This document shows positions 98 to 61,069 of a DNA stretch of 64,000 bases, in pieces. The position numbers and the translations under genes were made by a program. The stretch's first letter is position 1. Every line of letters starts with the position of its first letter. Location of the stretch: the NCBI GenBank assembly GCA_021818955.1, contig JAKASR010000006.1, positions 14,886 to 78,885 on the forward strand. Reading direction: 5' to 3'. The notes beneath the pieces are model-generated. The model saw nothing but the letters and a program-made list of their open reading frames with translations, was not told the DNA's origin and searched no databases. Source of the stretch: Acidobacteriota bacterium (GTDB lineage Bacteria > Acidobacteriota > Terriglobia > Terriglobales > SCQP01).

Positions 98-128
98 AAA
101 AAGAGCGGGCGTTGCGCCCGCTCTTTTT
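98..128 (-). terminator. Rho-independent (bidirectional) terminator downstream of hppA
   Basis: AAAAA-GAGCGGGCG-TTG-CGCCCGCTC-TTTTT. Perfect 9-bp GC stem (103-111/115-123), 3-nt loop, A5/T5 flanks. Lies about 25 nt beyond the hppA stop. Confidence 0.8.
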
Positions 129-154
129 GCTTTTTCCGCGAATAGGGTTCGGGG

Positions 155-4140: not shown

Positions 4141-4180
4141 AGTAAGAGCGGCCGAGCCGCTTCGACTCGGCCGATAACGC
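4141..4180. repeat. REP-like hairpin built from the two termini of the dispersed repeat in inverted arrangement
   Basis: 4141-4160 AGTAAGAGCGGCCGAGCCGC matches the repeat right terminus (33849-33868) at 19/20. 4166-4180 CTCGGCCGATAACGC is the reverse complement of the left terminus GCGTTAACGGCCGAG (14/15). CGGCCGAG (4149-4156) pairs with CTCGGCCG (4166-4173). Confidence 0.7.
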
Positions 4181-4220
4181 TTGACGGCGACGCGGCGGGC
4201 ACTACTGATATGATCCTGCT

Positions 4221-5125: not shown

Positions 5126-7537
5126 ATGCCTAATCCCAACCCCATTGATGTACCAAAGATTTTGCCAGTTCTGCCGGTGCGCGAGACGGTGTTATTTCCC
5201 CATGCCGTTTTGCCCCTGACCGTGGGCCGCGCTTCCTCCATTCAACTGGTGGATTCGCTGGGGGAAAACAAACTGTTGCTGGTCGTGACCCAGCGCGATG
5301 CCCACGTCGAAACGCCGAAGCCGAACGATATGTTCCAGGTGGGCTCGGTGGCGCTGGTGCACAAGATCGTGCGCATGCCCAACCAGACGCTGTTTCTGTT
5401 TATCGAGGGCGTGCAACGGTCACGCATTGCCGGATGGCTGCAGCTCGATCCTTACCTGACCGCCGAGCAAGAACTGATCGAGACCACGCCTTCGCTGAGC
5501 TCGCCGGAAACCGAGGCGCTGCACCGGAACGTGGTCAACTTGTTCCAGCAGATCGTCAGCCTCTCGCCCAATCTGTCCGACGAATTGCAGGGGCTGGTGA
5601 ACAACATTGAGGATGCGGGGCGATTGGCCGATTTTGTCGCCGCCTCGTTGCCCTCGCTTTCCACCTCGGACAAACAGGAACTGCTGGAAATCGCCGACGA
5701 TCATCAACGCCTGCTGGCCGTGCACCGCCATCTCAGCCGCGAGCTGGAAGTGCAGCAGTTGCGCAGCAAGCTGCAAAGCGAAGTGCAGGACCAGGTACAG
5801 CAGTCGCAGCGCGAATACTTCCTGCGCGAGCAGATGAAGGCGATCCAGAAGGAACTGGGCGAAGGCGACGAGACGCAGCGCGAGATCGAAGACCTGAAGC
5901 AGAAAATCGAAGCCGCCGGGATGCCGGACGAGGTCAAGGCGGAAGCTTTAAAAGAGACGCAGCGCCTGGGGCGAATGTCGCCGGCGGCGGCGGACTATTC
6001 GGTCACCCGCAACTATGTCGAATGGCTGATCATGCTGCCCTGGTCGAAAAGTTCCGCCGGCGAGGTGGACCTGATCAAAGCGGCGCAGATCCTGAACGAA
6101 GACCATTACGACCTGGAAAAGGTCAAAGACCGTATCCTCGACTACCTGGCGGTGTTGCGCCTGAAGCCGGAGATGAAGGGCCCGATCCTGTGTTTTGTCG
6201 GCCCTCCCGGGGTGGGCAAAACCTCGCTGGGGCGCTCGATTGCGCGCGCCCTGGGGCGCAAATTCTACCGGCTGTCGCTAGGCGGCGTGCATGACGAAGC
6301 GGAGATCCGCGGTCACCGCCGCACCTACATTGGGGCCTTGCCCGGGCAGATCATCCAGGGCTTGCGGCGCGCCGGCACCAACGACCCGGTATTCATGCTC
6401 GACGAAGTGGACAAAATCGGGCGGGATTTTCGCGGCGACCCCTCTTCGGCGTTGCTCGAGGTGCTTGATCCGGAGCAGAATTTCGCGTTCCGTGACAATT
6501 ATCTCGACCTGCCGTTCAATCTTTCGCGCGTGCTGTTCATCACCACCGCGAACATGCTCGACACCATTCCCGAGCCGTTGCGCGACCGCATGGAAACGAT
6601 CGAGCTGAGCGGGTACACGGAGGAAGAGAAACAGCATATTGCCTTCCGCTACCTGATTCCCAAGCAGTGCAAGGAAAACGGCGTCGCCGAAGACCGCATT
6701 CACTTCCAGCCGGAGGCGGTGCAGTCGCTGATTCGCAATTACACCCGCGAAGCCGGGGTGCGCAGCCTGGAGCGGCAGATCGGCTCGGTGGTGCGTAAGT
6801 ACGCGCGCCGGCTGGGAGAAAAGCCCGAGGAAGGGGTCGGGGTGCTGGAAGTCACTCCGGCGCTGGTGCGCGAGTTCCTGGGCGGTCCCAAGGTGTGGGT
6901 CGAAACCGAAATTGCCGAACGCACCCGCCGCGCTGGCGTCGCCGTCGGCCTGGCCTGGACGCCGACGGGAGGCGACGTGCTCTTCGTCGAGGCCAACCGC
7001 ATGAAAGGCGGCAAAGGGTTCACCATGACCGGGCACCTGGGCCAAGTCATGCAGGAATCCATGCAAGCCGCCCTGACCTGGGTGCGCTCGCATGCCGCCA
7101 TGCTGCATATTCCGGAAGACTTTTTCCAGCAGCACGACATCCATATTCACGTGCCCGCCGGCGCCATCCCCAAAGATGGCCCTTCGGCCGGCATCACGAT
7201 GGCAGTGGCGCTGGCTTCGCTGTTGATGGATCGTCCGGTGCGTCCGCGCCTGGCCATGACGGGCGAGTTGACGCTATCGGGCGATGTGCTGCCCATCGGC
7301 GGGGTGAAAGAAAAAGTATTGGCGGCCAAACGCGCCGGCATCGAGCACGTTCTGTTGCCGGCAGAAAACCGCCAGAACGTCGAAGAAGACCTGAAGCCGG
7401 AACAACTGCAGGGCATCGAGCTGCGCTATGTGCGCACCATGGAAGATGTGCTGCGGTTGGCGCTGCCGCAGTCGCCGGACGAACAGGCCGTCGACCAGAA
7501 GCAGCGCGATGAAATACTGGAGCCGGCGCATAAATAG
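5126..7537 (+). CDS. lon: ATP-dependent Lon protease
   Basis: 803 aa. Has a LON N-domain, Walker A GPPGVGKTSLG, and the protease active-site region PKDGPSAGITMAVAL. Confidence 0.95.
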   Translation: MPNPNPIDVPKILPVLPVRETVLFPHAVLPLTVGRASSIQLVDSLGENKLLLVVTQRDAHVETPKPNDMFQVGSVALVHKIVRMPNQTLFLFIEGVQRSRIAGWLQLDPYLTAEQELIETTPSLSSPETEALHRNVVNLFQQIVSLSPNLSDELQGLVNNIEDAGRLADFVAASLPSLSTSDKQELLEIADDHQRLLAVHRHLSRELEVQQLRSKLQSEVQDQVQQSQREYFLREQMKAIQKELGEGDETQREIEDLKQKIEAAGMPDEVKAEALKETQRLGRMSPAAADYSVTRNYVEWLIMLPWSKSSAGEVDLIKAAQILNEDHYDLEKVKDRILDYLAVLRLKPEMKGPILCFVGPPGVGKTSLGRSIARALGRKFYRLSLGGVHDEAEIRGHRRTYIGALPGQIIQGLRRAGTNDPVFMLDEVDKIGRDFRGDPSSALLEVLDPEQNFAFRDNYLDLPFNLSRVLFITTANMLDTIPEPLRDRMETIELSGYTEEEKQHIAFRYLIPKQCKENGVAEDRIHFQPEAVQSLIRNYTREAGVRSLERQIGSVVRKYARRLGEKPEEGVGVLEVTPALVREFLGGPKVWVETEIAERTRRAGVAVGLAWTPTGGDVLFVEANRMKGGKGFTMTGHLGQVMQESMQAALTWVRSHAAMLHIPEDFFQQHDIHIHVPAGAIPKDGPSAGITMAVALASLLMDRPVRPRLAMTGELTLSGDVLPIGGVKEKVLAAKRAGIEHVLLPAENRQNVEEDLKPEQLQGIELRYVRTMEDVLRLALPQSPDEQAVDQKQRDEILEPAHK

Positions 7538-9933: not shown

Positions 9934-9945
9934 GCTAGATTTCTA

Positions 9946-10083
9946 GCGGCACGGCCGCTTTTTATTTTGAGGCACCGATTCCATAGTGCGGAAATAAGAG
10001 GCAGCCGGCATTTGAACCGCCTAGGGCGGACATCTCGGCCTGCCCTCCAGGCATGCACTACGGTTCGCCTCGGCCGTTAACGC
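9946..10083 (-). repeat. Inverted, diverged copy of the dispersed repeat (both termini retained)
   Basis: The reverse complement of 9946-9962 is AAAAGCGGCCGTGCCGC, an exact 17-nt match to the right terminus. The reverse complement of 10069-10083 is GCGTTAACGGCCGAG, an exact 15-nt match to the left terminus. The internal CATGCCTG...GGCCG block is shared with 57283-57297. Confidence 0.7.
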
Positions 10084-10266
10084 CTACTATCGTTAAGATG
10101 AGAAATTCGGCATTTAAGGTGCTGGAAGCTGCGGATTTTACTCCTGAATTTACGCGACCCTCCAGCTTTGATCCAATCCCAACTGCAAGAGTTTGCAGTG
10201 TACATAACGGCCGTTTCATTTACAAATTCCGGACATGCGACTTGAAGAGTCATGGAAAAATGAAAC

Positions 10267-11454
10267 ATGCCCGATCCGCGCTTTGCCCGACGCACGGCCT
10301 GGGAATTCGATCCCGACCCATTAGGTTCCTTAGCGGAGCGGTTGCGCGTCCGAGGCGAGCTTTACGACTTGACCGAATCGAATCCGACGCGATGTGGCTT
10401 CCATTATGAGGATGCGCGTATCCGGACGGCGCTAGCCGATGCGCGCAACCTGCTCTATGCTCCCGACCCGCGCGGGCAAGCCTCGGCCCGTGCCGCCGTC
10501 CAGGCGTATTATCAGGCCCGCCGCATTGACCTGGACCCCGGGCGCATTTGGCTTACCGCAAGCACCAGTGAGGCCTATTCGCACCTTTTTCGTCTGCTGG
10601 CCGATGCCGGCGAGCGGGTGCACGCGCCGCAGCCGGGATATCCGCTCTTCGAACTTCTGGCTGGACAGAACGATCTTGAATTGGCCGCCTACAAACTGCA
10701 CTATGATGGCGGCGCCTGGGAACTGGATTGGGAATCGTTGGAAAGCGCCTGGACGCCTCAATCGCGGCTAGTGTTATTGCTGAATCCCAACAATCCTACC
10801 GGCGCTTACCTGCGCGCGGGCGAATGGCCGCGCCTGCAGGCTTGGGCGGCGGAACGCGGTTTGGCGCTGGTGGTGGATGAGGTTTTTTTCGACTATGCTT
10901 TTGCGCCCGACCCGAACCGATTGTGCGACTGCCTTCAGGACGCCACCGCGCTGACCTTCGTCTTGAGCGGCTTATCCAAAGTAGCGGCGCTGCCGCAAAT
11001 GAAGTTGGGCTGGATTGTGCTGGCCGGTCCCGCAGGGGCCGCCGCCGCCGCCATCCAGCGTCTGGAAATGATACTCGACATTTACTTGAGCGTCGCCGCG
11101 CCGGTGCAGAATGCCGCGACGGAACTGCTGGCCACCGCCCCCGCCATCCAGGCGCAGATTCGCGCCCGCACCCTGGCGAATTTACGGGAACTCGACGCCG
11201 GCTTGAGCGCGAGCCCGGAAGTGACGCGTTTTGCGGTGGAAGGCGGCTGGTATGCCACTTTGCGCCTGCCCCGCCATCATGACGATGAAACCTGGGCCCG
11301 GCGGCTGCTGGAACAGGACTCGGTTTATCTGCATCCTGGCCATTTTTATGGTTTTTCCCAGGAAGGCTGCGCGGTCGTGAGCCTGCTGCCGCGCGAGCCG
11401 GATTTCCGCGAAGGGATACGTCGGCTGCTGGAGCGCGTCAGGCAAGCCAGCTAG
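10267..11454 (+). CDS. Pyridoxal-phosphate-dependent aminotransferase (class I/II)
   Basis: 395 aa. PLP-lysine region LSGLSKVAALPQMKLGWIVL. NPNNPTG motif (LLNPNNPTGAY). Confidence 0.8.
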   Translation: MPDPRFARRTAWEFDPDPLGSLAERLRVRGELYDLTESNPTRCGFHYEDARIRTALADARNLLYAPDPRGQASARAAVQAYYQARRIDLDPGRIWLTASTSEAYSHLFRLLADAGERVHAPQPGYPLFELLAGQNDLELAAYKLHYDGGAWELDWESLESAWTPQSRLVLLLNPNNPTGAYLRAGEWPRLQAWAAERGLALVVDEVFFDYAFAPDPNRLCDCLQDATALTFVLSGLSKVAALPQMKLGWIVLAGPAGAAAAAIQRLEMILDIYLSVAAPVQNAATELLATAPAIQAQIRARTLANLRELDAGLSASPEVTRFAVEGGWYATLRLPRHHDDETWARRLLEQDSVYLHPGHFYGFSQEGCAVVSLLPREPDFREGIRRLLERVRQAS

Positions 11455-12424: not shown

Positions 12425-12988
12425 CTACGGCATATAGCCGTGTATTCTCCACCACATCTTGACCAACAAGGCCAACGTCACCAACAAATAGCCTAATAAG
12501 GCATTGTACTCGCGGTGGCGCCAATAACGGCGCCAGGAAAAAACAGCCGCGGGGCCGGGCAGGCCGGCGGCCGACCGGCGGCGCGGCCAAAAGCGCGGTA
12601 CGGCGCCGCAATAAGCGTTAAATTCAGCGCCAAAGCGCGATTGAAGAAAGCCTTCCTCGCGGCGAATGACGGGCAGGTAAATGCCCCAAAGCAAAGCTGC
12701 CACGAGGACGGCGATGAGCCAATCGCGGGCGACCCAAAGAAAGCCGGCGGCCAGCAGCAGACTGCCGAGATAGAGCGGATTGCGCGTCCAGCGGTAAGGC
12801 CCGCTGGTGGTGAGGCGGGCATTTTTTTCAATGTGGCCGGCGGAGGCGGCGCGCAGCGCCAGGCCGCAAAAGGCCAGCGGCAGACCGAGCGCCAGGCTGG
12901 CGGGCGTGGGGCGGGCGCGCAGCAGATAGATCGCCGCCAACACAAAGCCGAGCGGCACGCGATAACGGGTTGGATCCCAACCGCTCAT
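12425..12988 (-). CDS. Membrane methyltransferase, isoprenylcysteine carboxyl / phospholipid methyltransferase family
   Basis: 187 aa, multi-TM. Family motif TSGPYRWTRNPLYLGSLL. 4-nt overlap with the upstream GT9 gene. Confidence 0.65.
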   Translation of the reverse strand: MSGWDPTRYRVPLGFVLAAIYLLRARPTPASLALGLPLAFCGLALRAASAGHIEKNARLTTSGPYRWTRNPLYLGSLLLAAGFLWVARDWLIAVLVAALLWGIYLPVIRREEGFLQSRFGAEFNAYCGAVPRFWPRRRSAAGLPGPAAVFSWRRYWRHREYNALLGYLLVTLALLVKMWWRIHGYMP

Positions 12989-13959
12989 GCCGTGGATGGC
13001 GCCGCCGCCAGCAGTTCCACGCAGGCGGCGTGAGCTTCCTCGACCGAAATGGCCAGCAGCGCGGGTGAGGTTTCCCGCCCGCGCATATAGCGGCCGTTGC
13101 GCGAAGCTTGCGGCGGAGCCTTATAGAGAATGCGCACGTTCGCGCCGAGCGGGCCGTTACGTTCCGGATCGGTCGGCCCGAACAGGCCCAGCGCCGGCGT
13201 GCCCAAAGCCGCCGCCAGGTGCAGCGGTCCGGTATCCCCGCCCACCACCAGGCGCGCCGCTTGCAACATCGCCGCTAAGGGCAAGAGCCCGCCACGGAAA
13301 ACAGGAATGCCGGCCTGCTCGAATAAGGCATCCTGTGGGCCATGATTAACCACGGGCGCCAGTCCCTGGTTGCGCCGCAGCGCGCCGGCCAGTTCGCGAT
13401 AGCGTACGGCCGGCCAGAGCTTCGATTCCCAGCCACCGCCGGGCAGCAGGAAGGCCATGGCTTCCGTGCCTTGCCGGGCGCGCCACTGCCGCGTTTCGGC
13501 CTGAACCGATGCCGGAATCGTCAGCAAAAACTGAGGAAAGTCCGGCGCCGGGGCCAAATCGCCCGCTAGTTCGAGCAATTGTCCGGTGATATGGGCGGAG
13601 CGCGGGCGCACCTGGCGGGTGTAAAACCAGGCGGCGGCGCGCTCTCGCAGCCACGGGGTGGCGAGCCCGAGGCGTCGCCGGGCGCCGCTGAGCAACCCGA
13701 GCAGGGAAGATTTGAAATTGCCTTGCAGATCGAGTGTGATATCCGGCTGAAATCGGCGCGCCGGCCACCAGCTCAAGCCCGTAATCGGGATAACGCGGTC
13801 GAGCGCCGGATGATGTTCCACCAGCGGCAGCCAGCGCTCGCCTACCGCCCAGGCCAACTCCGCTTCGGGCAAGGCCGAGCGCAGGCTGGACGCCACCGGC
13901 AAAGCGTGCACGATGTCGCCCAGGCTGCTCAGTTTTAAAATCAGCACCCGCTGACGCAT
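12985..13959 (-). CDS. Glycosyltransferase family 9 (heptosyltransferase-like)
   Basis: N-terminus RVLILKLSSLGDIVHALP. C-terminal GGDTGPLHLAAALGTP, typical of GT9. Confidence 0.8.
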   Translation of the reverse strand: MRQRVLILKLSSLGDIVHALPVASSLRSALPEAELAWAVGERWLPLVEHHPALDRVIPITGLSWWPARRFQPDITLDLQGNFKSSLLGLLSGARRRLGLATPWLRERAAAWFYTRQVRPRSAHITGQLLELAGDLAPAPDFPQFLLTIPASVQAETRQWRARQGTEAMAFLLPGGGWESKLWPAVRYRELAGALRRNQGLAPVVNHGPQDALFEQAGIPVFRGGLLPLAAMLQAARLVVGGDTGPLHLAAALGTPALGLFGPTDPERNGPLGANVRILYKAPPQASRNGRYMRGRETSPALLAISVEEAHAACVELLAAAPSTA

Positions 13960-54324: not shown

Positions 54325-54467
54325 CCCCCGCCTTGGCAGGACTGCTAATGGCTCACGACGATACGAATAGCGAGCAAAAAGGTTCAGAACGGGAGTGGCC
54401 GGAAAGTGGTCGGCCTAAATTGGGCAGGCAGCCGCGATGTGGTTTGCTACTCTGTTCACACACTGGA

Positions 54468-57113
54468 ATGGCTAGTCCTGGTTCTGAAAAATTCGCCCAT
54501 CCCCGCCATGCCGCGGCTAGTCCAGTGGCGCTGTCGGCCGCCTCCGGCGTCGCTCCCACGGCTACGGAACCATATGGGTTAATTCAAGTCTCGCTTCCGG
54601 GCGCCTCCGGCTCAGGTTATACGTACCGCTTTCCCTCTGATTTATCGCCCCAACCCGGAATTCGTGTCTTAGTGCCCTGGCGCAATCAACAGCGGGTCGG
54701 CGTGGTGCTCGGCACGATTTCAGCGTTGCCGGAAGGTTTGCTGGCGGAACAAGTGCGCCCGATCGCCTGCATCCTCGATTTCGAGCCGTTGTTGATTCCG
54801 GAATTGCTCGAACTATTACGCTGGGCGGCGGATTATTACCACGCCGGATTGGGCGAGCTGCTGCAATGCGCCTTGCCGCCGGATCTGATCCGGCCGCGCC
54901 GTTTAGCCTTGACCGAGGCGGGAAGGGAAGAACTGAAGCGGCTTGCTGCGGAAGTCGCGCCGTCGCAGTTGGCTCTGCCGGCGCTGAATGCCCCGGTCGC
55001 CGCTCTCGTCAATCCCACGCTGGCCTGCCTCTCCGCCGCCGAGCGCGGACTGGCGCTGCCCGGAGCGCTTCGCCGGCGCGCCTTCACCGCGCTGGATTTA
55101 CAACGCGCCATCCGCCGCGGCTGGATCGCCTGCGTCGAGCAGGAGCCGCGCCGGCGTTCCGCGCCCACCACACTCTACTATCGAATTACCGATCGCCCCT
55201 GGAGCGAACCGTTGAGCCCGGCGCGCGTGCGCGTGCGCAACGCATTGCAGGCCGCTGGCGGCGAACTCAACGCGGCGGAGTTAGCCGGCATCGCTTCTAA
55301 TACCGTGTTGCGCGCGCTGCTGCGGCAGCAATATCTGCAAGCCTGTCCGCGCCCCACGCCGCCGCCGGCCCCGGAATGGGAGGCGCGCCCGCGAGTCGTT
55401 CGCCTCAACCCGCCGCAGGCTTGCGCGCTGCATGCGATCGTTGCCGCGCTCGACGCGCTCCCCCCCCCTGGTGTTCCGCTCGGCCGTCCGGCAAAGCCGG
55501 ATTCCGTCCCGGCGCCGCCGGTCTTTCTGTTGCATGGCGTGACCGGCAGCGGCAAAACCGCCGTCTATCTTGAAGCCATTGCCGCCTGCTTGGCGCGTGG
55601 ACGCGCGGCTCTGCTGCTGGCGCCTGAAATTGGGCTTACGCCGGCGCTCGAAGCCGATTTTGAACAGGCCTTCCCCGGCCAAGTCGCCATCCTGCATTCC
55701 GGCTTAAGCCGCGCCGAACGCAGCGCGGCCTGGTATCGCATCCGCCGGGGCGAAGCCCGGGTCGTGATTGGCACGCGTTCGGCTGTCTTTTCCCCGCTGC
55801 CGAATCCCGGCTTGATAATTGTGGATGAAGAACACGACGCATCTTTTAAGCAGCAAAACTCGCCCCGGTATCATGCGCGCGATCTGGCCTTGGTGCGCGC
55901 CCGCATCCAGGCTGCGGTGGCCGTGCTCGGCTCCGCCACGCCGGCGCTCGAAAGCTATCGCCATGCCCGTGTTGGCAAATATCACCTGCTGGAACTGCCT
56001 CAGCGCGTGATTGCCCGCCCGCTGCCCCGGGTTGAACTGGTCTCGATGCGCGACGCCTTTCGTCAACACTCCCAGGCCGCGCCAGCAGCTTCCGGCCTGC
56101 CGCGTTCCGAGTTGGTCGTCTCCGAGCCTTTGCGTGCCGCCTTGGCGGTCCGCCTGGAACGCGGCGAACAGTCGCTGGTATTGATCAATCGCCGCGGTTA
56201 CGCCCCGGTCGCGCTTTGCCGCGCTTGCGGCCAGGCGCAGGCTTGCCGCGATTGCTCCGCGCCCATGACCTGGCATAAACGCGCCGGCGTTCTGCTCTGC
56301 CATCTCTGCGGCTATTCCCAGCCGCCTCTGCAGACGTGCCCGGCTTGTGGTAGCGAGCATCTGTATTTTCTTGGCATTGGCAGCGAAAAGGTGGAAGAGC
56401 ACCTGCGCCGGCTTTTCCCCGCTGCCCGGCTCGGCCGGCTCGATCGCGATACCGTTCGTGGCCGGCGTGACTTTGCCCGCATCCTTGCCGCCTTCCGCCA
56501 CGGCGAACTGGATATTCTGCTCGGCACACAAATGATCGCCAAGGGACACGACCTGCCCGGCGTCACTCTGGTCGGCGTGATCCAGGCCGATTTGAGCTTG
56601 CTCCTGCCCGATTTCCGGGCTGCCGAGCGCACGTTCCAACTGTTGACCCAGGTGGCCGGACGCGCCGGGCGCGCGGCCTTGCCGGGCGAAGTCTATTTAC
56701 AGACCCTCTTTCCCGAACATTACGCCGTGCGCGCCGCCGCCGCGGCCGATTATTTTGGTTTTTGGCAGCGGGAGTGCCATTTTCGCCGTGCGCTCTCTTA
56801 TCCACCCTTTGCCTCGCTGGCTATGGTCCAATTGCGCGGGCCGCGGGAAGACTCCTTGCGCGCGGCTGCGCTGCAGCTTCGCGAACGGCTGGAAGCGGCG
56901 CGCAAAGCGGAGCAATTGCCGGTCCGCATTCTCGGCCCCGTGCCCGCGCTCGTCGCCCGCCTGAAACGCGAGTATCGCTTCCAGTTGCTGTTAAAATCTC
57001 CGCGCCGTTCCCCGCTGCATCGCCTGTTGGCCCGCCTCAATGCCATGGCCGCGGAGGTGTCACTTGCAGGCGGTAGCTTAATTGTGGATATTGACCCGGT
57101 TACGCTTGATTAA
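54468..57113 (+). CDS. priA: Primosomal replication-restart helicase PriA
   Basis: Walker A HGVTGSGKTAVY. IIVDEEHD. Zn-binding Cys clusters CRACGQAQACRDC...CHLCGY...CPACGS. The start is uncertain (ATG 54468 or GTG 54525). The ORF-track start at 54318 is probably an extension. Confidence 0.9.
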   Translation: MASPGSEKFAHPRHAAASPVALSAASGVAPTATEPYGLIQVSLPGASGSGYTYRFPSDLSPQPGIRVLVPWRNQQRVGVVLGTISALPEGLLAEQVRPIACILDFEPLLIPELLELLRWAADYYHAGLGELLQCALPPDLIRPRRLALTEAGREELKRLAAEVAPSQLALPALNAPVAALVNPTLACLSAAERGLALPGALRRRAFTALDLQRAIRRGWIACVEQEPRRRSAPTTLYYRITDRPWSEPLSPARVRVRNALQAAGGELNAAELAGIASNTVLRALLRQQYLQACPRPTPPPAPEWEARPRVVRLNPPQACALHAIVAALDALPPPGVPLGRPAKPDSVPAPPVFLLHGVTGSGKTAVYLEAIAACLARGRAALLLAPEIGLTPALEADFEQAFPGQVAILHSGLSRAERSAAWYRIRRGEARVVIGTRSAVFSPLPNPGLIIVDEEHDASFKQQNSPRYHARDLALVRARIQAAVAVLGSATPALESYRHARVGKYHLLELPQRVIARPLPRVELVSMRDAFRQHSQAAPAASGLPRSELVVSEPLRAALAVRLERGEQSLVLINRRGYAPVALCRACGQAQACRDCSAPMTWHKRAGVLLCHLCGYSQPPLQTCPACGSEHLYFLGIGSEKVEEHLRRLFPAARLGRLDRDTVRGRRDFARILAAFRHGELDILLGTQMIAKGHDLPGVTLVGVIQADLSLLLPDFRAAERTFQLLTQVAGRAGRAALPGEVYLQTLFPEHYAVRAAAAADYFGFWQRECHFRRALSYPPFASLAMVQLRGPREDSLRAAALQLRERLEAARKAEQLPVRILGPVPALVARLKREYRFQLLLKSPRRSPLHRLLARLNAMAAEVSLAGGSLIVDIDPVTLD

Positions 57114-57197
57114 AAATGTTGATGTCGCGGATATTCCAGGTAATCTTTTTCCCTAAAAGCGTTAACGGCCGAGTCGGGCAGCAGTTTTCGTCATTGG

Positions 57198-57287
57198 CAA
57201 TTTCGGAGAAATTGCCTGCAGCCTGCTCAATTTCGGAGAAATTGCCTGCAGCCTGCTCAATTTCGAAGAAATTGCCTGAAGCCATGC
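57198..57287 (+). repeat. Tandem 30-bp repeat x3 inside copy C, each unit carrying a CAATTTC-GGA-GAAATTG hairpin
   Basis: The unit CAATTTCGGAGAAATTGCCTGCAGCCTGCT occurs at 57198-57227 and 57228-57257 (identical). A third, diverged unit lies at 57258-57287. Copy B has a single unit. Confidence 0.9.
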
Positions 57288-57342
57288 CTGCGGGCCGAAG
57301 CGCGGGTTCCGGTTAGCCCGCGCCTATGAACGACGATACCAA

Positions 57343-57393
57343 GCAATTCCGCAGGAATTGCATCAAGCAAGCCGGCAATTCCGCAGGAATTGC
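57343..57393 (+). repeat. Two copies of the 19-nt hairpin GCAATTCC-GCA-GGAATTGC, 32 nt apart
   Basis: Identical 19-mers at 57343-57361 and 57375-57393. This module is absent from copy B. Confidence 0.9.
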
Positions 57394-57477
57394 GTCCGGC
57401 AATGCCCGGCATCCATGAGTATTCGCCATGCGTCCGGTTTCGGCCGGACCTTTGCGAAAGCGTCAGCGCCTAAAAGT

Positions 57478-57506
57478 AAAAGCGGCCGTGCCGCTTTTCT
57501 TGTTTT
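57478..57506. terminator. Bidirectional terminator-like hairpin formed by the repeat right terminus
   Basis: AAAAGCGGC-CGT-GCCGCTTTT followed by CTTGTTTTC. It sits between the priA stop (57113) and the M50 protease stop (57506). Confidence 0.55.
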
Positions 57507-58447
57507 CAAACTAGACGAACCGGGGCCAGCACCATGGTCAAGGCGAGAATAATAGCCCCAGCCAGCGCCAGACTGAGGCGCAAAGGCCCTAAATCTTCCC
57601 CGCGAGGCACGCCTGGATGTTGTCCGCGCATCAGCAGGATAAATCCCGCCCAGATGTACCAGCCCTGCCAATAACGCCATCCCGCCCATACCAACGCTGG
57701 CGCCAGCAGCCAGGATGTCCAACGGTGCAGCCGGGGCGCCAGCGCGTAAAGAATATGGCCGCCGTCCAATTGTCCGGCCGGGATCAAATTCAGCATGGTG
57801 GCCATGAAGCCGAACCAGGCGGCACGGGCTACGGGGGATAAATAGATTTGCCCGGCCGCCATGCCGGGATGAGCCACCCACAATATGGCGTGTGCCACCG
57901 CCGGCCAGCCGAAGGCCATTCCGCTGGCGTTGGTCGGAAAGGGTTTCAGCACCGATTGCCGCAATCCTAGCCAGAAATAAGGTACAGCCACTACGAATCC
58001 GGCCAGCGGGCCGGCGATGCCGACGTCCAGCAGTGCCCGGCGATGGGGAAAAGGAGAATGAATGCGTATAAACGCGCCTAGCGTGCCCAATAGCGTGGGC
58101 GCCGGAAGAAAATAAGGTAGCGAGGCGGCCATCCCGTACTGGCGGCAGGCAAGATAGTGTCCCATCTCGTGCGCCAGCAGTATCAACAGCAGCGTCGAGC
58201 AGAACGGCAGCCCCTGCATTAGCAGGCCGGGATGATGCCAAGCCCATAGAAACGGAAATACGTCATTGAAAGTGCGAAACGGCGGGCGCAGGCGGTTGAA
58301 ATTGTATTGCAGGCGCGCGCCCACAACCAGCATGGATACGCTGGTCAGCAGCAGCAGCAATGCCGGTACGAGCCGGGGCGCGTGGTATTCCGCCGGCCAT
58401 AAAGGCAAGTTGGGATAGGGAATATAAGTTTCGCGGTCGGCCTGCAT
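57506..58447 (-). CDS. Site-2 protease family (M50) membrane metalloprotease
   Basis: HExxH in LLAHEMGHYLACRQYG. Multi-TM. Downstream NLIPAGQLDGGH motif. Confidence 0.85.
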   Translation of the reverse strand: MQADRETYIPYPNLPLWPAEYHAPRLVPALLLLLTSVSMLVVGARLQYNFNRLRPPFRTFNDVFPFLWAWHHPGLLMQGLPFCSTLLLILLAHEMGHYLACRQYGMAASLPYFLPAPTLLGTLGAFIRIHSPFPHRRALLDVGIAGPLAGFVVAVPYFWLGLRQSVLKPFPTNASGMAFGWPAVAHAILWVAHPGMAAGQIYLSPVARAAWFGFMATMLNLIPAGQLDGGHILYALAPRLHRWTSWLLAPALVWAGWRYWQGWYIWAGFILLMRGQHPGVPRGEDLGPLRLSLALAGAIILALTMVLAPVRLV

Positions 58448-59823: not shown

Positions 59824-59880
59824 GAAAGTGTATTGGCCCGAGTCGGACAGTCGTTCATTTCCGCCCGGCTTGGCAATCTC
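59824..59880 (+). repeat. Degenerate partial copy of the repeat left module
   Basis: GAAAGTGTATTGGCCCGAGTCGGACAG...TTGGCAATCTC compared with AAAAGCGTTAACGGCCGAGTCGGGCAG...TTGGCAATTTC (57155-57204). The GCCGAGTCGG(G/A)CAG block matches 13/15. Confidence 0.45.
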
Positions 59881-59909
59881 CTAACCAGTGCTATAGGCTG
59901 GAAGAAATC

Positions 59910-60998
59910 ATGAATACGACGCTTGTATCGTCCCGGACCGGCATCACCGGTCTGGTGGATCAAATTGCCGGGGGGGAGCGGTTGCAGCCCGATTCCGCCC
60001 TCCGCTTGTGGCGGGAGGCCGGCGAGGCGGATTGGCGCCGGCTGGCTGGCGCCGCTCGGGCCCGTTTTCACGCCCCGCATGACTGCACCTACCTGATCAT
60101 GCGGATCATCAATTACACCAATGTCTGCGTGGCCCAGTGCGATTATTGCGCGTTTTATAAACTCCCCGGCGAGCCGGGCGGATATGTGCTCGACCGCGAG
60201 GCAGTCTTTGCCAAAATTGACGATTTACTGGCCCGCGGTGGCGATTTGGCCGGCTTTAATGGCGGCTTCAATCCTCACCTGCCGCTTGATTACTATTGCC
60301 GGTTATTTGCCCAGATCCGCGAGCGTTATGGCGAGCGTCTGGAATTTTACGCGCTCACCGTGGCGGAGTTTCTCTACCTTGCCGACCGCGCTCGCATCAG
60401 CTTGGCCGAAGCCGCCGAACGCTTGCGCCACGCCGGCGTGCGCTGGGTTACCGGCGGGGGTGCGGAAATATTGACCGAGAGCTTTCGCGCCCGCCACAGC
60501 CGCTTCAAGTACCGTGTCACCGATTTTTTTGATGCTCAGCGCGCGTTGCTCGCCGCCGGCCTAAAAACCACCGCCACCATGGTGATCGGTTTCGATGAAA
60601 GCGTGGAGGAGCGCATCGAACACCTGGAGCGTGTGCGCCAATTTCAAGAACAAACCGGCGGTTTGGCCAGCTTTTTATGCTGGACCTATAAGCCCTACAA
60701 CACCGCGCTCGGCGGCCGGGAAATCGCCGCCGAGGAGTATTTACGCCACCTCGCCCTGTGCCGCGTTTACCTGGATAATATCCCGCGCCTGCGCACTTCC
60801 GTGTTGACCCAGAACGAGCGCGCGCTCGAAGGCTTGGCTTGGGGCGCGGATGATTTCGATTTGCCGCTGGAAGACGAAGTCACCGAGCTGGCCGGCGCCC
60901 GCATCGAGATCGATCTCGATCGCCTGCTCGCCCATGCTCGCGCCCTCGGGTTCACGCCCCGCTACCGCCATGTCGCCGCCATGCCCGCCGGAGCATGA
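59910..60998 (+). CDS. Radical-SAM enzyme of the futalosine menaquinone pathway family (MqnC/MqnE/CofH-like)
   Basis: CxxxCxxC cluster NYTNVCVAQCDYCAFY, about 362 aa. MqnC and MqnE cannot be distinguished by eye. Confidence 0.7.
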   Translation: MNTTLVSSRTGITGLVDQIAGGERLQPDSALRLWREAGEADWRRLAGAARARFHAPHDCTYLIMRIINYTNVCVAQCDYCAFYKLPGEPGGYVLDREAVFAKIDDLLARGGDLAGFNGGFNPHLPLDYYCRLFAQIRERYGERLEFYALTVAEFLYLADRARISLAEAAERLRHAGVRWVTGGGAEILTESFRARHSRFKYRVTDFFDAQRALLAAGLKTTATMVIGFDESVEERIEHLERVRQFQEQTGGLASFLCWTYKPYNTALGGREIAAEEYLRHLALCRVYLDNIPRLRTSVLTQNERALEGLAWGADDFDLPLEDEVTELAGARIEIDLDRLLAHARALGFTPRYRHVAAMPAGA

Positions 60999-61002
60999 TC
61001 CC

Positions 61003-61069
61003 CATCCATGAGTATTCGCCATGCGTCCGGTTTCGGCCGGGACCTTTGCGAAAGCGTCAGCGCCTAAAG
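61003..61069 (+). repeat. Dispersed intergenic repeat, copy D (core only, 3'-truncated, 1-nt insertion)
   Basis: ATCCATGAGTATTCGCCATGCGTCCGGTTTCGGCCGGGACCTTTGCGAAAGCGTCAGCGCCTAAAG matches 57411-57476 apart from one extra G. It begins 5 nt after the mqn stop and ends 5 nt before the rhodanese stop. Confidence 0.9.

Follow-up and report, generated by a model that had tools for sequence, protein, structure and literature searches.

The BOX elements of Streptococcus pneumoniae and Streptococcus suis are modular repeats in which boxB, present from zero to many times in tandem, is enclosed by boxA and boxC (boxA-boxB(n)-boxC); these elements are intergenic, predicted to be rich in hairpins and species-restricted, they create spurious or fused open reading frames (ORFs), and their length varies among strains, more so for longer arrays (PMC3049150). 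In Porphyromonas gingivalis, the BrickBuilt MITE (miniature inverted-repeat transposable element) consists of a leader and a tail around a spacerless tandem array of 23-nt units; it is always intergenic, multi-copy (19 per genome) and limited in host range, and has small inverted-repeat ends (PMC4596501). Here we analyze a modular repeat in a 64,000-nt stretch of genomic DNA of an uncultured Acidobacterium (hereafter, the window), centered on copy C, which an earlier note on the sequence had described, at 57150-57494, as a long modular form with variable-number hairpin cassettes. Copy C is probably a long copy of a lineage-specific, high-copy, non-autonomous, non-coding composite interspersed repeat with internal minisatellite cassettes.

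Three further kinds of bacterial repeats enter the comparison. REP sequences (for repetitive extragenic palindromic) and bacterial interspersed mosaic elements (BIMEs) of enterobacteria are high-copy extragenic mosaics of short GC-rich palindromes and linkers, in variable tandem number and often located past stop codons; the REPs within BIMEs alternate in orientation. Elements derived from the insertion sequences IS200/IS605, namely, the palindrome-associated transposable elements (PATEs) and the REPIN/RAYT systems, lack inverted termini and target duplication, have an end hairpin and show a strand-biased orientation. The mycobacterial interspersed repetitive units (MIRUs) are intergenic tandem units, strain-variable in number, with ends that overlap the flanking stop or start codons; these simply repeat in tandem, follow the orientation of the operon and have neither hairpin cassettes nor distinct end modules.

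Modular architecture of copies C and B

Copy C (57151-57494, + strand, as are all its modules) is located between the convergent 3' ends of the genes for PriA (54348-57113, +) and an M50 peptidase (57506-58447, −) and consists of the L terminus, three hp1 hairpin units, the block, two hp2 cassettes, the core and the R hairpin. The L terminus (57151-57196; CCCTAAAAGCGTTAACGGCCGAGTCGGGCAGCAGTTTTCGTCATTG) includes the T motif AAGCGTTAACGGCCGAG and, as single-stranded DNA (ssDNA), forms no hairpin better than those of shuffled sequences (z −0.68). Next comes the hp1 minisatellite (57197-57283), 2.9 units of 30 bp, each with the hairpin (GG)CAATTTC-NNN-GAAATTG(CC); Tandem Repeats Finder places this array at 57198-57283 (period 30, 2.9 copies, 96% matches, score 158) with the consensus CAATTTCGGAGAAATTGCCTGCAGCCTGCT, and the hairpin, folded as ssDNA, has a 9-bp stem of −7.3 kcal/mol (z −5.0 against shuffles). 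The block (57283-57336) is an imperfect palindrome, GCGCGGG...CCCGCGC, followed by CCTATGAACGAC. The hp2 region (57343-57393) holds two cassettes, GCAATTCC-GCA-GGAATTGC, at 57343-57361 and 57375-57393, that is, with a start-to-start period of 32; as ssDNA, the hp2 hairpin has 8 bp and −6.3 kcal/mol, far better than shuffles. The core (57410-57494, about 84 nt) ends at its 3' side with the R hairpin GCGGC-CGT-GCCGC (−9.3 kcal/mol as ssDNA, z −3.6), and the right boundary of the repeat is sharp in all copies, exactly after GCCGC. At locus C only, R together with the flanking A and T runs (AAAAGCGGCCGTGCCGCTTTT CTTGTTTTC; 57478-57508, +) has the pattern of an intrinsic terminator between the convergent genes; given that the T run after R is absent in the other copies, this pattern is not a property of the family.

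Copy B (33644-33868, +), located between two minus-strand genes and identical in two other assemblies, evidently of the same strain, is a short form with L, a single hp1, block and core. B and C are collinear, as initially described. Their cores are 95% identical over 84 nt; the direct-orientation likeness of the termini holds as well (L, AAAAGCG[TTAAC]GGCCGAG; R, AAAAGCGGCCG(A/T)G), as does the shared cassette architecture CAATTYC-NNN-GRAATTG. The corresponding palindrome pattern, CAATTYCNNNGRAATTG, occurs six times in the window, always within B and C, against 0.00 expected from shuffles. Other details of the B/C comparison had to be amended. The 19-nt hp2 hairpin is indeed present twice in C and absent in B, and the 30-bp hp1 unit is present three times in C, but B holds only the 21-nt hairpin part of that unit, with a different linker. 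The cassettes, which had been said to cause the length difference entirely, explain it approximately: rather than being simply inserted, the hp2 region of C takes the place of the B segment AATAATCTTTCGGTAT, and the block shows small indels between the two copies (alignment A2). Finally, the left end of B is CCCAAAGCG and not CCTAAAAGCG, as previously given.

Abundance, variation and range of the repeat family

For comparison, we used the metagenome-assembled genome (MAG) GCA_027357485.1, in which the window lies on contig DAHVUN010000017.1 (contig 17; 172 kb), together with additional stretches from contig 41 (L085) and contig 63 (L087) of the same MAG, from an ENA assembly (L086), L088, and L089, an extension of contig 17. 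The contigs of L085-L087 were reached by using the translated repeat as a protein query, which retrieved four spurious ORFs (P0001-P0004) and, through these, the contigs that carry them; a second such query, a 355-aa chimera made from the remaining five frames, retrieved at least one more protein (P0005). Copies were catalogued by BLAST of the modules, by direct reading and with nhmmer profiles. In about 150 kb of DNA from the same species, this gave more than 25 insertion loci, that is, about one locus per 7 kb, including 11 loci in 77 kb of contig 17. These copies follow a common plan: L, zero to five hp1, block, zero to three hp2, one to three cores, and the R hairpin (GCGGC-CGA/CGT-GCCGC) at the end. 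The modular organization claimed from B and C alone thus extends to many further copies with the same module order, and the cassettes are found at many loci, far beyond one local duplication.

All four combinations of presence and absence of hp1 and hp2 are represented (alignment A2). Neither cassette is found in copy G and in the copies at L089 518, L085 10016 and L086 12661; hp1 without hp2 occurs as a single unit in copies A and B and at L085 19274 (the latter with three tandem cores, L085 19414-19642), and as two units in L088; a single hp2 without hp1 is present at L087 6764; and both cassettes are present at L087 755 (one of each), L086 8034 (two of each) and in C (three hp1 and two hp2). 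An array of five hp1 units (L086 10122-10256) belongs to a copy without a core (L086 10087), and at least three hp2 are found in the copy at L087 14-198 (hp2 x3 at L087 16-96). The basal unit is about 190 nt long (L terminus, block, core and R hairpin) and contains two fixed internal sites for hairpin minisatellites, one for hp1 (period of 29-30 bp) and one for hp2 (31-32 bp). The arms of both hairpins are near-invariant, the loops vary (GGA, GAA, AGA), and hp1 differs from hp2 by one symmetric change, T..A to C..G; both stems are AT-rich within a genome of 62% GC.

The number of units also differs between strains. A 4.6-kb contig from another sample (ENA ERZ27233565 k141_173273; L093) spans locus C with flanks that are 99.6-99.9% identical to those in GCA_027357485.1, and the element itself differs by one single-nucleotide polymorphism and by precisely one missing 30-bp hp1 unit (two instead of three), being otherwise identical. 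This 30-bp difference between two short-read assemblies is behavior of the variable-number tandem repeat (VNTR) type, for which the earlier note had proposed to compare closely related strains; given that the number of cassettes differs between near-identical strains, such loci could serve as strain markers in metagenomes.

The repeat family is non-coding and intergenic. The genes near the copies are ordinary chromosomal ones (PriA, M50 peptidase, HU, Lon, PheA, H+-pyrophosphatase, PAS histidine kinase and others), and the copies, located between genes, carry frameshifting indels; a coding reading (frame MSIRHASGFGRTFAKASAPKSKSGRAA) was rejected, considering the 1-nt indels among copies and the lack of a codon-like substitution pattern. 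Translations of the repeat nevertheless contaminate public protein sets: P0001-P0005 are spurious ORFs, of which P0001-P0004 are pure repeat translations, and public gene calls (L001 18567-20309 and 14511-15416) start inside repeats, a DUF58 gene in copy G and a 301-aa gene in copy H, respectively; the N-terminus of an S10 peptidase in a public gene call is also derived from the repeat.

The family is restricted to one lineage, an uncultured soil-type Acidobacterium. A 22-mer from the core has no match among 185,579 GTDB species representatives and a single match in JGI metagenomes, at a contig end; contigs from other samples (L002, L003 and L004) break inside the core, and this dense repeat disrupts short-read assemblies. 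No match was found in plasmids and phages (blastn with settings for distant similarity), nor in viral contigs for the core 22-mer and a 19-mer from the L terminus. The nearest genomes, identified via the radical-SAM protein encoded in the window, are Acidobacteria/Terriglobia MAGs, with at most 76% amino-acid identity, and no copy was detected by blastn or nhmmer in 80 related Acidobacteria loci (1.4 Mb) found through the same protein. These 80 loci lack both the PriA-M50 and the VTT-rSAM-rhodanese synteny and, without matching synteny in the relatives, no empty site can be defined. A literature search on interspersed repeats in Acidobacteria yielded nothing relevant.

Conservation is highest at the termini, which are also the most informative part of the repeat. 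L (AAGCG-TTAAC-GGCCGAG-TCGG) and R (AAAAGC-GGCCGAG-CCGC) are direct repeats that share CGGCCGAG. Mini L-R forms, with little but the termini, are present at L089 2377-2421 and at window positions 4141-4182 (F). Solo hybrid sites, AAGCGTTAACGGCCGAG|CCGC, are found at L085 13686 (13686-13706) and 12746 (12746-12770); with the composition AAGCGTT(A/C)ACGGCCGAG|CCGC, that is, the 5' half of L joined to the 3' half of the R hairpin, these sites look like products of recombination or deletion between the direct-repeat ends. The start of L often lies at or on a stop codon: the TAA within GTTAAC is a stop codon at L085 12656 and 13692 (in the latter case, at 13692-13694, that of an OpuAC-like gene), and, at copy A and L086 6924, L directly adjoins a TAA or TGA. 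Compound and rearranged forms also exist. The array at L085 9857-10357 reads L, two hp1, block / L, block, core / two hp2, core; the tandem cores of L085 share the fixed junction GCCGC|TTCGCC; and at L086 6923-7034, the central 35-40 nt of the core (GTCCGG...GTCAG; 6972-7013) are inverted relative to the L and R ends.

The copies are strongly co-oriented. With one reference copy taken per contig, 21 of the 22 other loci are on the same strand (for a near-identical tally, 22 of 23, binomial p = 2.9e-6). The configurations of the flanking genes, taken from the gene tables, comprise 6 tandem-sense, 4 tandem-antisense, 6 convergent and 5 divergent cases. The GC skew relative to copy orientation, corrected for gene orientation, is −0.043, −0.050, about 0 and +0.093 in four contigs; with such inconsistent signs, a link to the replication strand is unsupported by the present data. 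Some variants are private to neighboring copies, namely, GTG in each of the three contig 63 cores (and not in any of the 13 others), CAAAG in two adjacent cores of contig 41, and ACTTTTG in two neighboring copies of contig 17, suggesting local duplication or gene conversion; in a permutation test, core distances within and between contigs did not differ significantly (p = 0.17).

Further copies are scattered across the window. Copy A is cut by the window edge (1-58, +); its complete form, with L, one hp1, block and core, is found at L089 5617-5839, where the start of L overlaps the TAA stop codon of the upstream gene. A degenerate L terminus with a disrupted hp1 (72%; 59824-59883, +) lies directly upstream of a radical-SAM (CofH/MqnC-like) gene (59910-60998), and a core-only copy without the R hairpin (61003-61068, +; 98% identity, 1-nt insertion) directly follows the stop codon of that gene. 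Copy E (9945-10090, −), the sole copy on the opposite strand, keeps the L (GGCGTTAACGGCCGAG) and R (AAAAAGCGGCCGTGCCGC) termini around an unrelated interior and, hence, looks like a second subfamily. The 42-nt mini form F (4141-4182), in which an R-type hairpin (GTAAGAGCGGCCGAGCCGCTT) abuts an inverted L terminus (CGACTCGGCCGATAACGCTT), is identical in three assemblies. The sequence outside the R hairpin of copy E (window 9945-9931; TAGAAATCTAGCATGT) resembles that outside R at L088 414-430 (TAGAATTCGGCATGT), and a longer right-end variant may be common to some copies.

Several observations concern the surroundings of the copies. A split layout recurs, with an L (+hp1) piece upstream of a gene and an (hp2+) core piece right after it: around the radical-SAM/CofH-like gene of the window (59824-61068), a RimO/MiaB-like gene (L086 10078-12091), and an OpuAC-like gene with an FG-GAP gene (L085 12646-15830). 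Given the density and co-orientation of the copies, this layout may be due to chance. The possibility that such "L...gene...core" assemblies are cargo-carrying elements is weakened by the core after the RimO/MiaB-like gene, which has its own degenerate T start and a block remnant, and by the nature of the enclosed genes, which are widespread housekeeping genes. Inside the RimO/MiaB-like gene itself (L086 10393-11922), a T-like motif (CCTAAGCGTTAACGGCCGTG; 10893-10925) is present in frame and specifies the residues ...SLSVNGRVMPP... in a low-complexity linker of the protein; the motif may go back to an old insertion within the gene and recalls the palindromic elements of Rickettsia. AAAAAGAGCGGGCGTTGCGCCCGCTCTTTTTGC (window 98-130), which separates copy A from the 3' end of the H+-pyrophosphatase gene, is a strong hairpin that is terminator-like in both directions and has no sequence relationship to the repeat. 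About 0.9 kb upstream of B lies a free-standing gene for an HNH endonuclease (32212-32781; 189 aa; HNH_5, E 1e-16), with no evident link to the repeat. In 8-kb bins, the GC skew of the window is +0.03 and +0.01 in the first 16 kb, then negative, down to −0.10 at 40-56 kb; this trend is independent of gene orientation, and the opposite-strand copy E (at about 10 kb) sits in the positive part.

Class, spread and possible roles of the repeat

The repeat falls outside the strict definition of a MITE, having neither inverted ends nor target duplication: an inverted-repeat search of 57140-57510 detected only internal hairpins, with no pair joining the termini, and the flanks of about 12 complete copies have no short direct repeat in common. 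Neither is it a CRISPR array, because the units abut without spacers, the linker being part of the repeated unit. At locus C, in short-read assemblies, the unit number differs between close strains, as in VNTR minisatellites. The preferred reading, as stated at the outset, is that of a non-autonomous composite repeat. Such a family would be selfish, with conserved ends required in cis; units would be gained and lost via replication slippage or unequal recombination between tandem units, and modules would be reshuffled between copies via recombination or gene conversion. The hairpins would then be structural features of ssDNA or RNA rather than sites of a dedicated regulator, and effects on the host would be incidental and local, such as the terminator-like R hairpin between PriA and M50, the GTTAAC stop codons in L and the spurious N-terminal extensions.

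Several points weigh against this reading. No transposase or recombinase, and thus no mobilizing gene, is present in the gene tables of the roughly 150 kb; no empty site was recovered, so that mobility is inferred rather than shown; and the three-versus-two difference at locus C comes from short-read assemblies (k=141), which occasionally collapse tandem units. That the hairpin arms are conserved almost perfectly could be due to selection for function rather than to youth. Furthermore, co-orientation of 21 of 22 loci is unexpected for a simple decaying selfish repeat and is explained neither by the direction of the flanking genes nor, consistently, by GC skew.

In one scenario, the repeat would be mobilized as ssDNA by an HUH-type enzyme (IS200/IS605 TnpA, a RAYT-like Y1 transposase or a rolling-circle Rep) that would recognize the R hairpin and the L motif. 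We consider this tentative, with a modest chance of being correct; it would refine rather than replace the view of the family as a selfish, non-autonomous repeat. Insertions of IS200/IS605 are strand-biased relative to replication, and the scenario would explain why inverted termini and target-site duplications are missing, why the loci of a contig are co-oriented, and why cores occur in tandem, as repeated or one-ended events; also in its favor, the termini are alike in direct orientation, the tandem cores share the fixed junction GCCGC|TTCGCC, and a stable R hairpin (−9.3 kcal/mol as DNA) lies exactly at the 3' boundary. However, the L terminus has no significant hairpin (z −0.68), no 4-5-nt target is conserved 5' of L (the base before the A-run is T in 8, G in 7 and C in 5 copies, with a loose tendency toward TAA or TGA just 5' of L), GC skew gives no consistent link to the direction of replication, copies truncated at the 5' and 3' ends are about equally frequent, and the available DNA (about 150 kb) shows no gene for Y1 or Rep. 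By another route, not involving transposition, modules might be assembled and lost through site-specific recombination at T (core CGGCCGAG), which is present repeatedly, in the manner of non-coding cassette arrays of integrons or Xer modules: the solo sites at L085 13686 and 12746, 5' half of L plus CGGCCGAG plus 3' half of R, follow an attL/attR/attB-like logic, the compound array at L085 9857-10357 is punctuated by T sites, and the T sites within an array all point one way. Yet the deletion end points of the mini form at L089 2377-2421 fall outside CGGCCGAG, an 8-nt microhomology deletion yields the same solo product, the arrival of T sites at new loci is left unexplained, and no recombinase gene was seen nearby, all of which makes this route very unlikely. 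A bolder proposal, quite improbable in our estimate, is that the family, far from being a parasite in decay, constitutes a novel class of mobile modules that are strand-polar and lack terminal inverted repeats, and whose non-coding cassettes (hp1 array, block, hp2 array, core) would be joined, duplicated and excised at the directional T (CGGCCGAG) by a dedicated single-strand or site-specific recombinase; were this the case, one would be dealing with co-oriented arrays over tens of kb, and the solo T sites would be footprints or landing pads.

A role for the palindromes themselves can be sought in DNA or in RNA. The invariant arms, variable loops and symmetric change between hp1 and hp2 fit a protein-binding site and an RNA stem-loop equally; both readings, already voiced when the cassettes were first described, are conjectural. 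As double-stranded DNA, hp1 and hp2 could be putative sites of a dimeric protein, with the arrays building a cooperative complex for regulation, nucleoid organization or a partition-like function. Perfect dyad symmetry, invariant arms around a variable 3-nt spacer (GGA, GAA, AGA), a hp1/hp2 difference that is symmetric in both half-sites, and a period of 29-32 bp, about three helical turns, which puts the sites on one face of the helix, all point this way; nonetheless, we regard such a protein as unlikely, considering that no stand-alone perfect palindrome (0 mismatches) exists outside the elements in about 130 kb, that arrays are an optional feature (all four combinations occur, and many copies lack arrays altogether), that copies occupy gene contexts of every kind, convergent 3' ends among them, that degenerate units are not repaired, and that the unit number differs between near-identical strains. 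Alternatively, the family could encode a structured RNA, either a small RNA or a cis-acting module of untranslated regions (mRNA stabilizer or terminator), whose stem-loops would be the cassettes. On either strand, the fold is better than those of shuffled sequences (z −5.1 for the + strand, −3.7 for the − strand), the R hairpin is terminator-like at C, and the + strand, but not the − strand, of the block variant at L086 12661 keeps its pairing via G-U pairs; such effects on transcripts are described for BOX, ERIC and Correia elements (PMC3049150). Against an RNA role, none of the 21 pairs predicted by RNAalifold from 15 cores is compensatory, and the covariation term is penalizing (+1.15), although with copies that are only 2-12% diverged the test has low power and gives weak evidence against such a role rather than a refutation; variants break the stems, and mutated hairpin units lose pairing. 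There is no Rfam 15 match in the whole window in gathering mode, and the permissive E-value mode gave one noise match (E = 2.9) in 57050-57600; no sigma-70-like promoter was found at C, and a sigma-54 promoter reading of TGGCA...TTGC in hp1 was rejected on inspection, the GG-to-GC spacing being 16 nt and not 10. The T run follows R only at C, and the copies are oriented at random with respect to transcription of the flanking genes (6 sense and 4 antisense in co-directional contexts). The RNA reading is, in our judgment, quite improbable. The family would gain in interest if it turned out to have genuine chromosome-scale polarity or a new type of mobilizing enzyme.

Comparison with described repeat systems

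The Acidobacterium repeat belongs to none of the systems considered here: BOX, BrickBuilt, MITE, BIME, MIRU or IS200/IS605-derived elements. With MIRUs, it shares the intergenic location, strain-variable tandem units and ends that overlap stop codons, but it differs in having distinct end modules and hairpin cassettes, and its copies ignore gene direction. In common with the PATEs, it has no inverted termini or target duplication, an end hairpin and an orientation bias; unlike these elements, in which subterminal hairpins are found, it has a strong hairpin at R and none of significance at L, as well as no conserved target tetra- or pentanucleotide and an inconsistent tie to GC skew, and neither TnpA nor RAYT was found in the approximately 150 kb of available DNA. 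Similarly to REP/BIME, the repeat is a high-copy, extragenic mosaic of short imperfect palindromes with variable tandem units, often close behind stop codons; however, all palindromic units are in direct orientation, without the alternation that is typical of BIMEs, and, in a genome of 62% GC, the stems of hp1 and hp2 are rich in A and T.

The resemblance to BrickBuilt includes end subunits around a spacerless tandem array, intergenic location, multiple copies and a narrow range; the differences are the lack of inverted-repeat ends, units that are perfect hairpins of two kinds, and density (about 1 per 7 kb versus 19 per genome). As in BOX, fixed end modules enclose an internal tandem module of variable number, which also varies between strains, and hairpins, narrow host range and spurious ORFs are common to both. 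In contrast, the ends of BOX are inverted repeats related to ISSpn2, whereas those of the Acidobacterium repeat are direct repeats without an inverted terminal repeat; the Acidobacterium repeat holds hairpin minisatellites of two kinds, each at its own position, and its core is duplicated too; and co-orientation, strong in the Acidobacterium repeat, goes unmentioned in the consulted part of the BOX description (PMC3049150). At the sequence level, the Acidobacterium repeat is absent from the collections searched outside its species, although no direct alignment to BOX was made. The classical MITE model does not accommodate direct-repeat termini, solo hybrids or an orientation that is nearly uniform whatever the direction of the genes. 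Altogether, the repeat family is real and well supported; its general kind is familiar, and its unusual traits are direct-repeat termini, two hairpin minisatellites and near-uniform orientation. By architecture and behavior, the pneumococcal BOX is the closest system described, followed by BrickBuilt.

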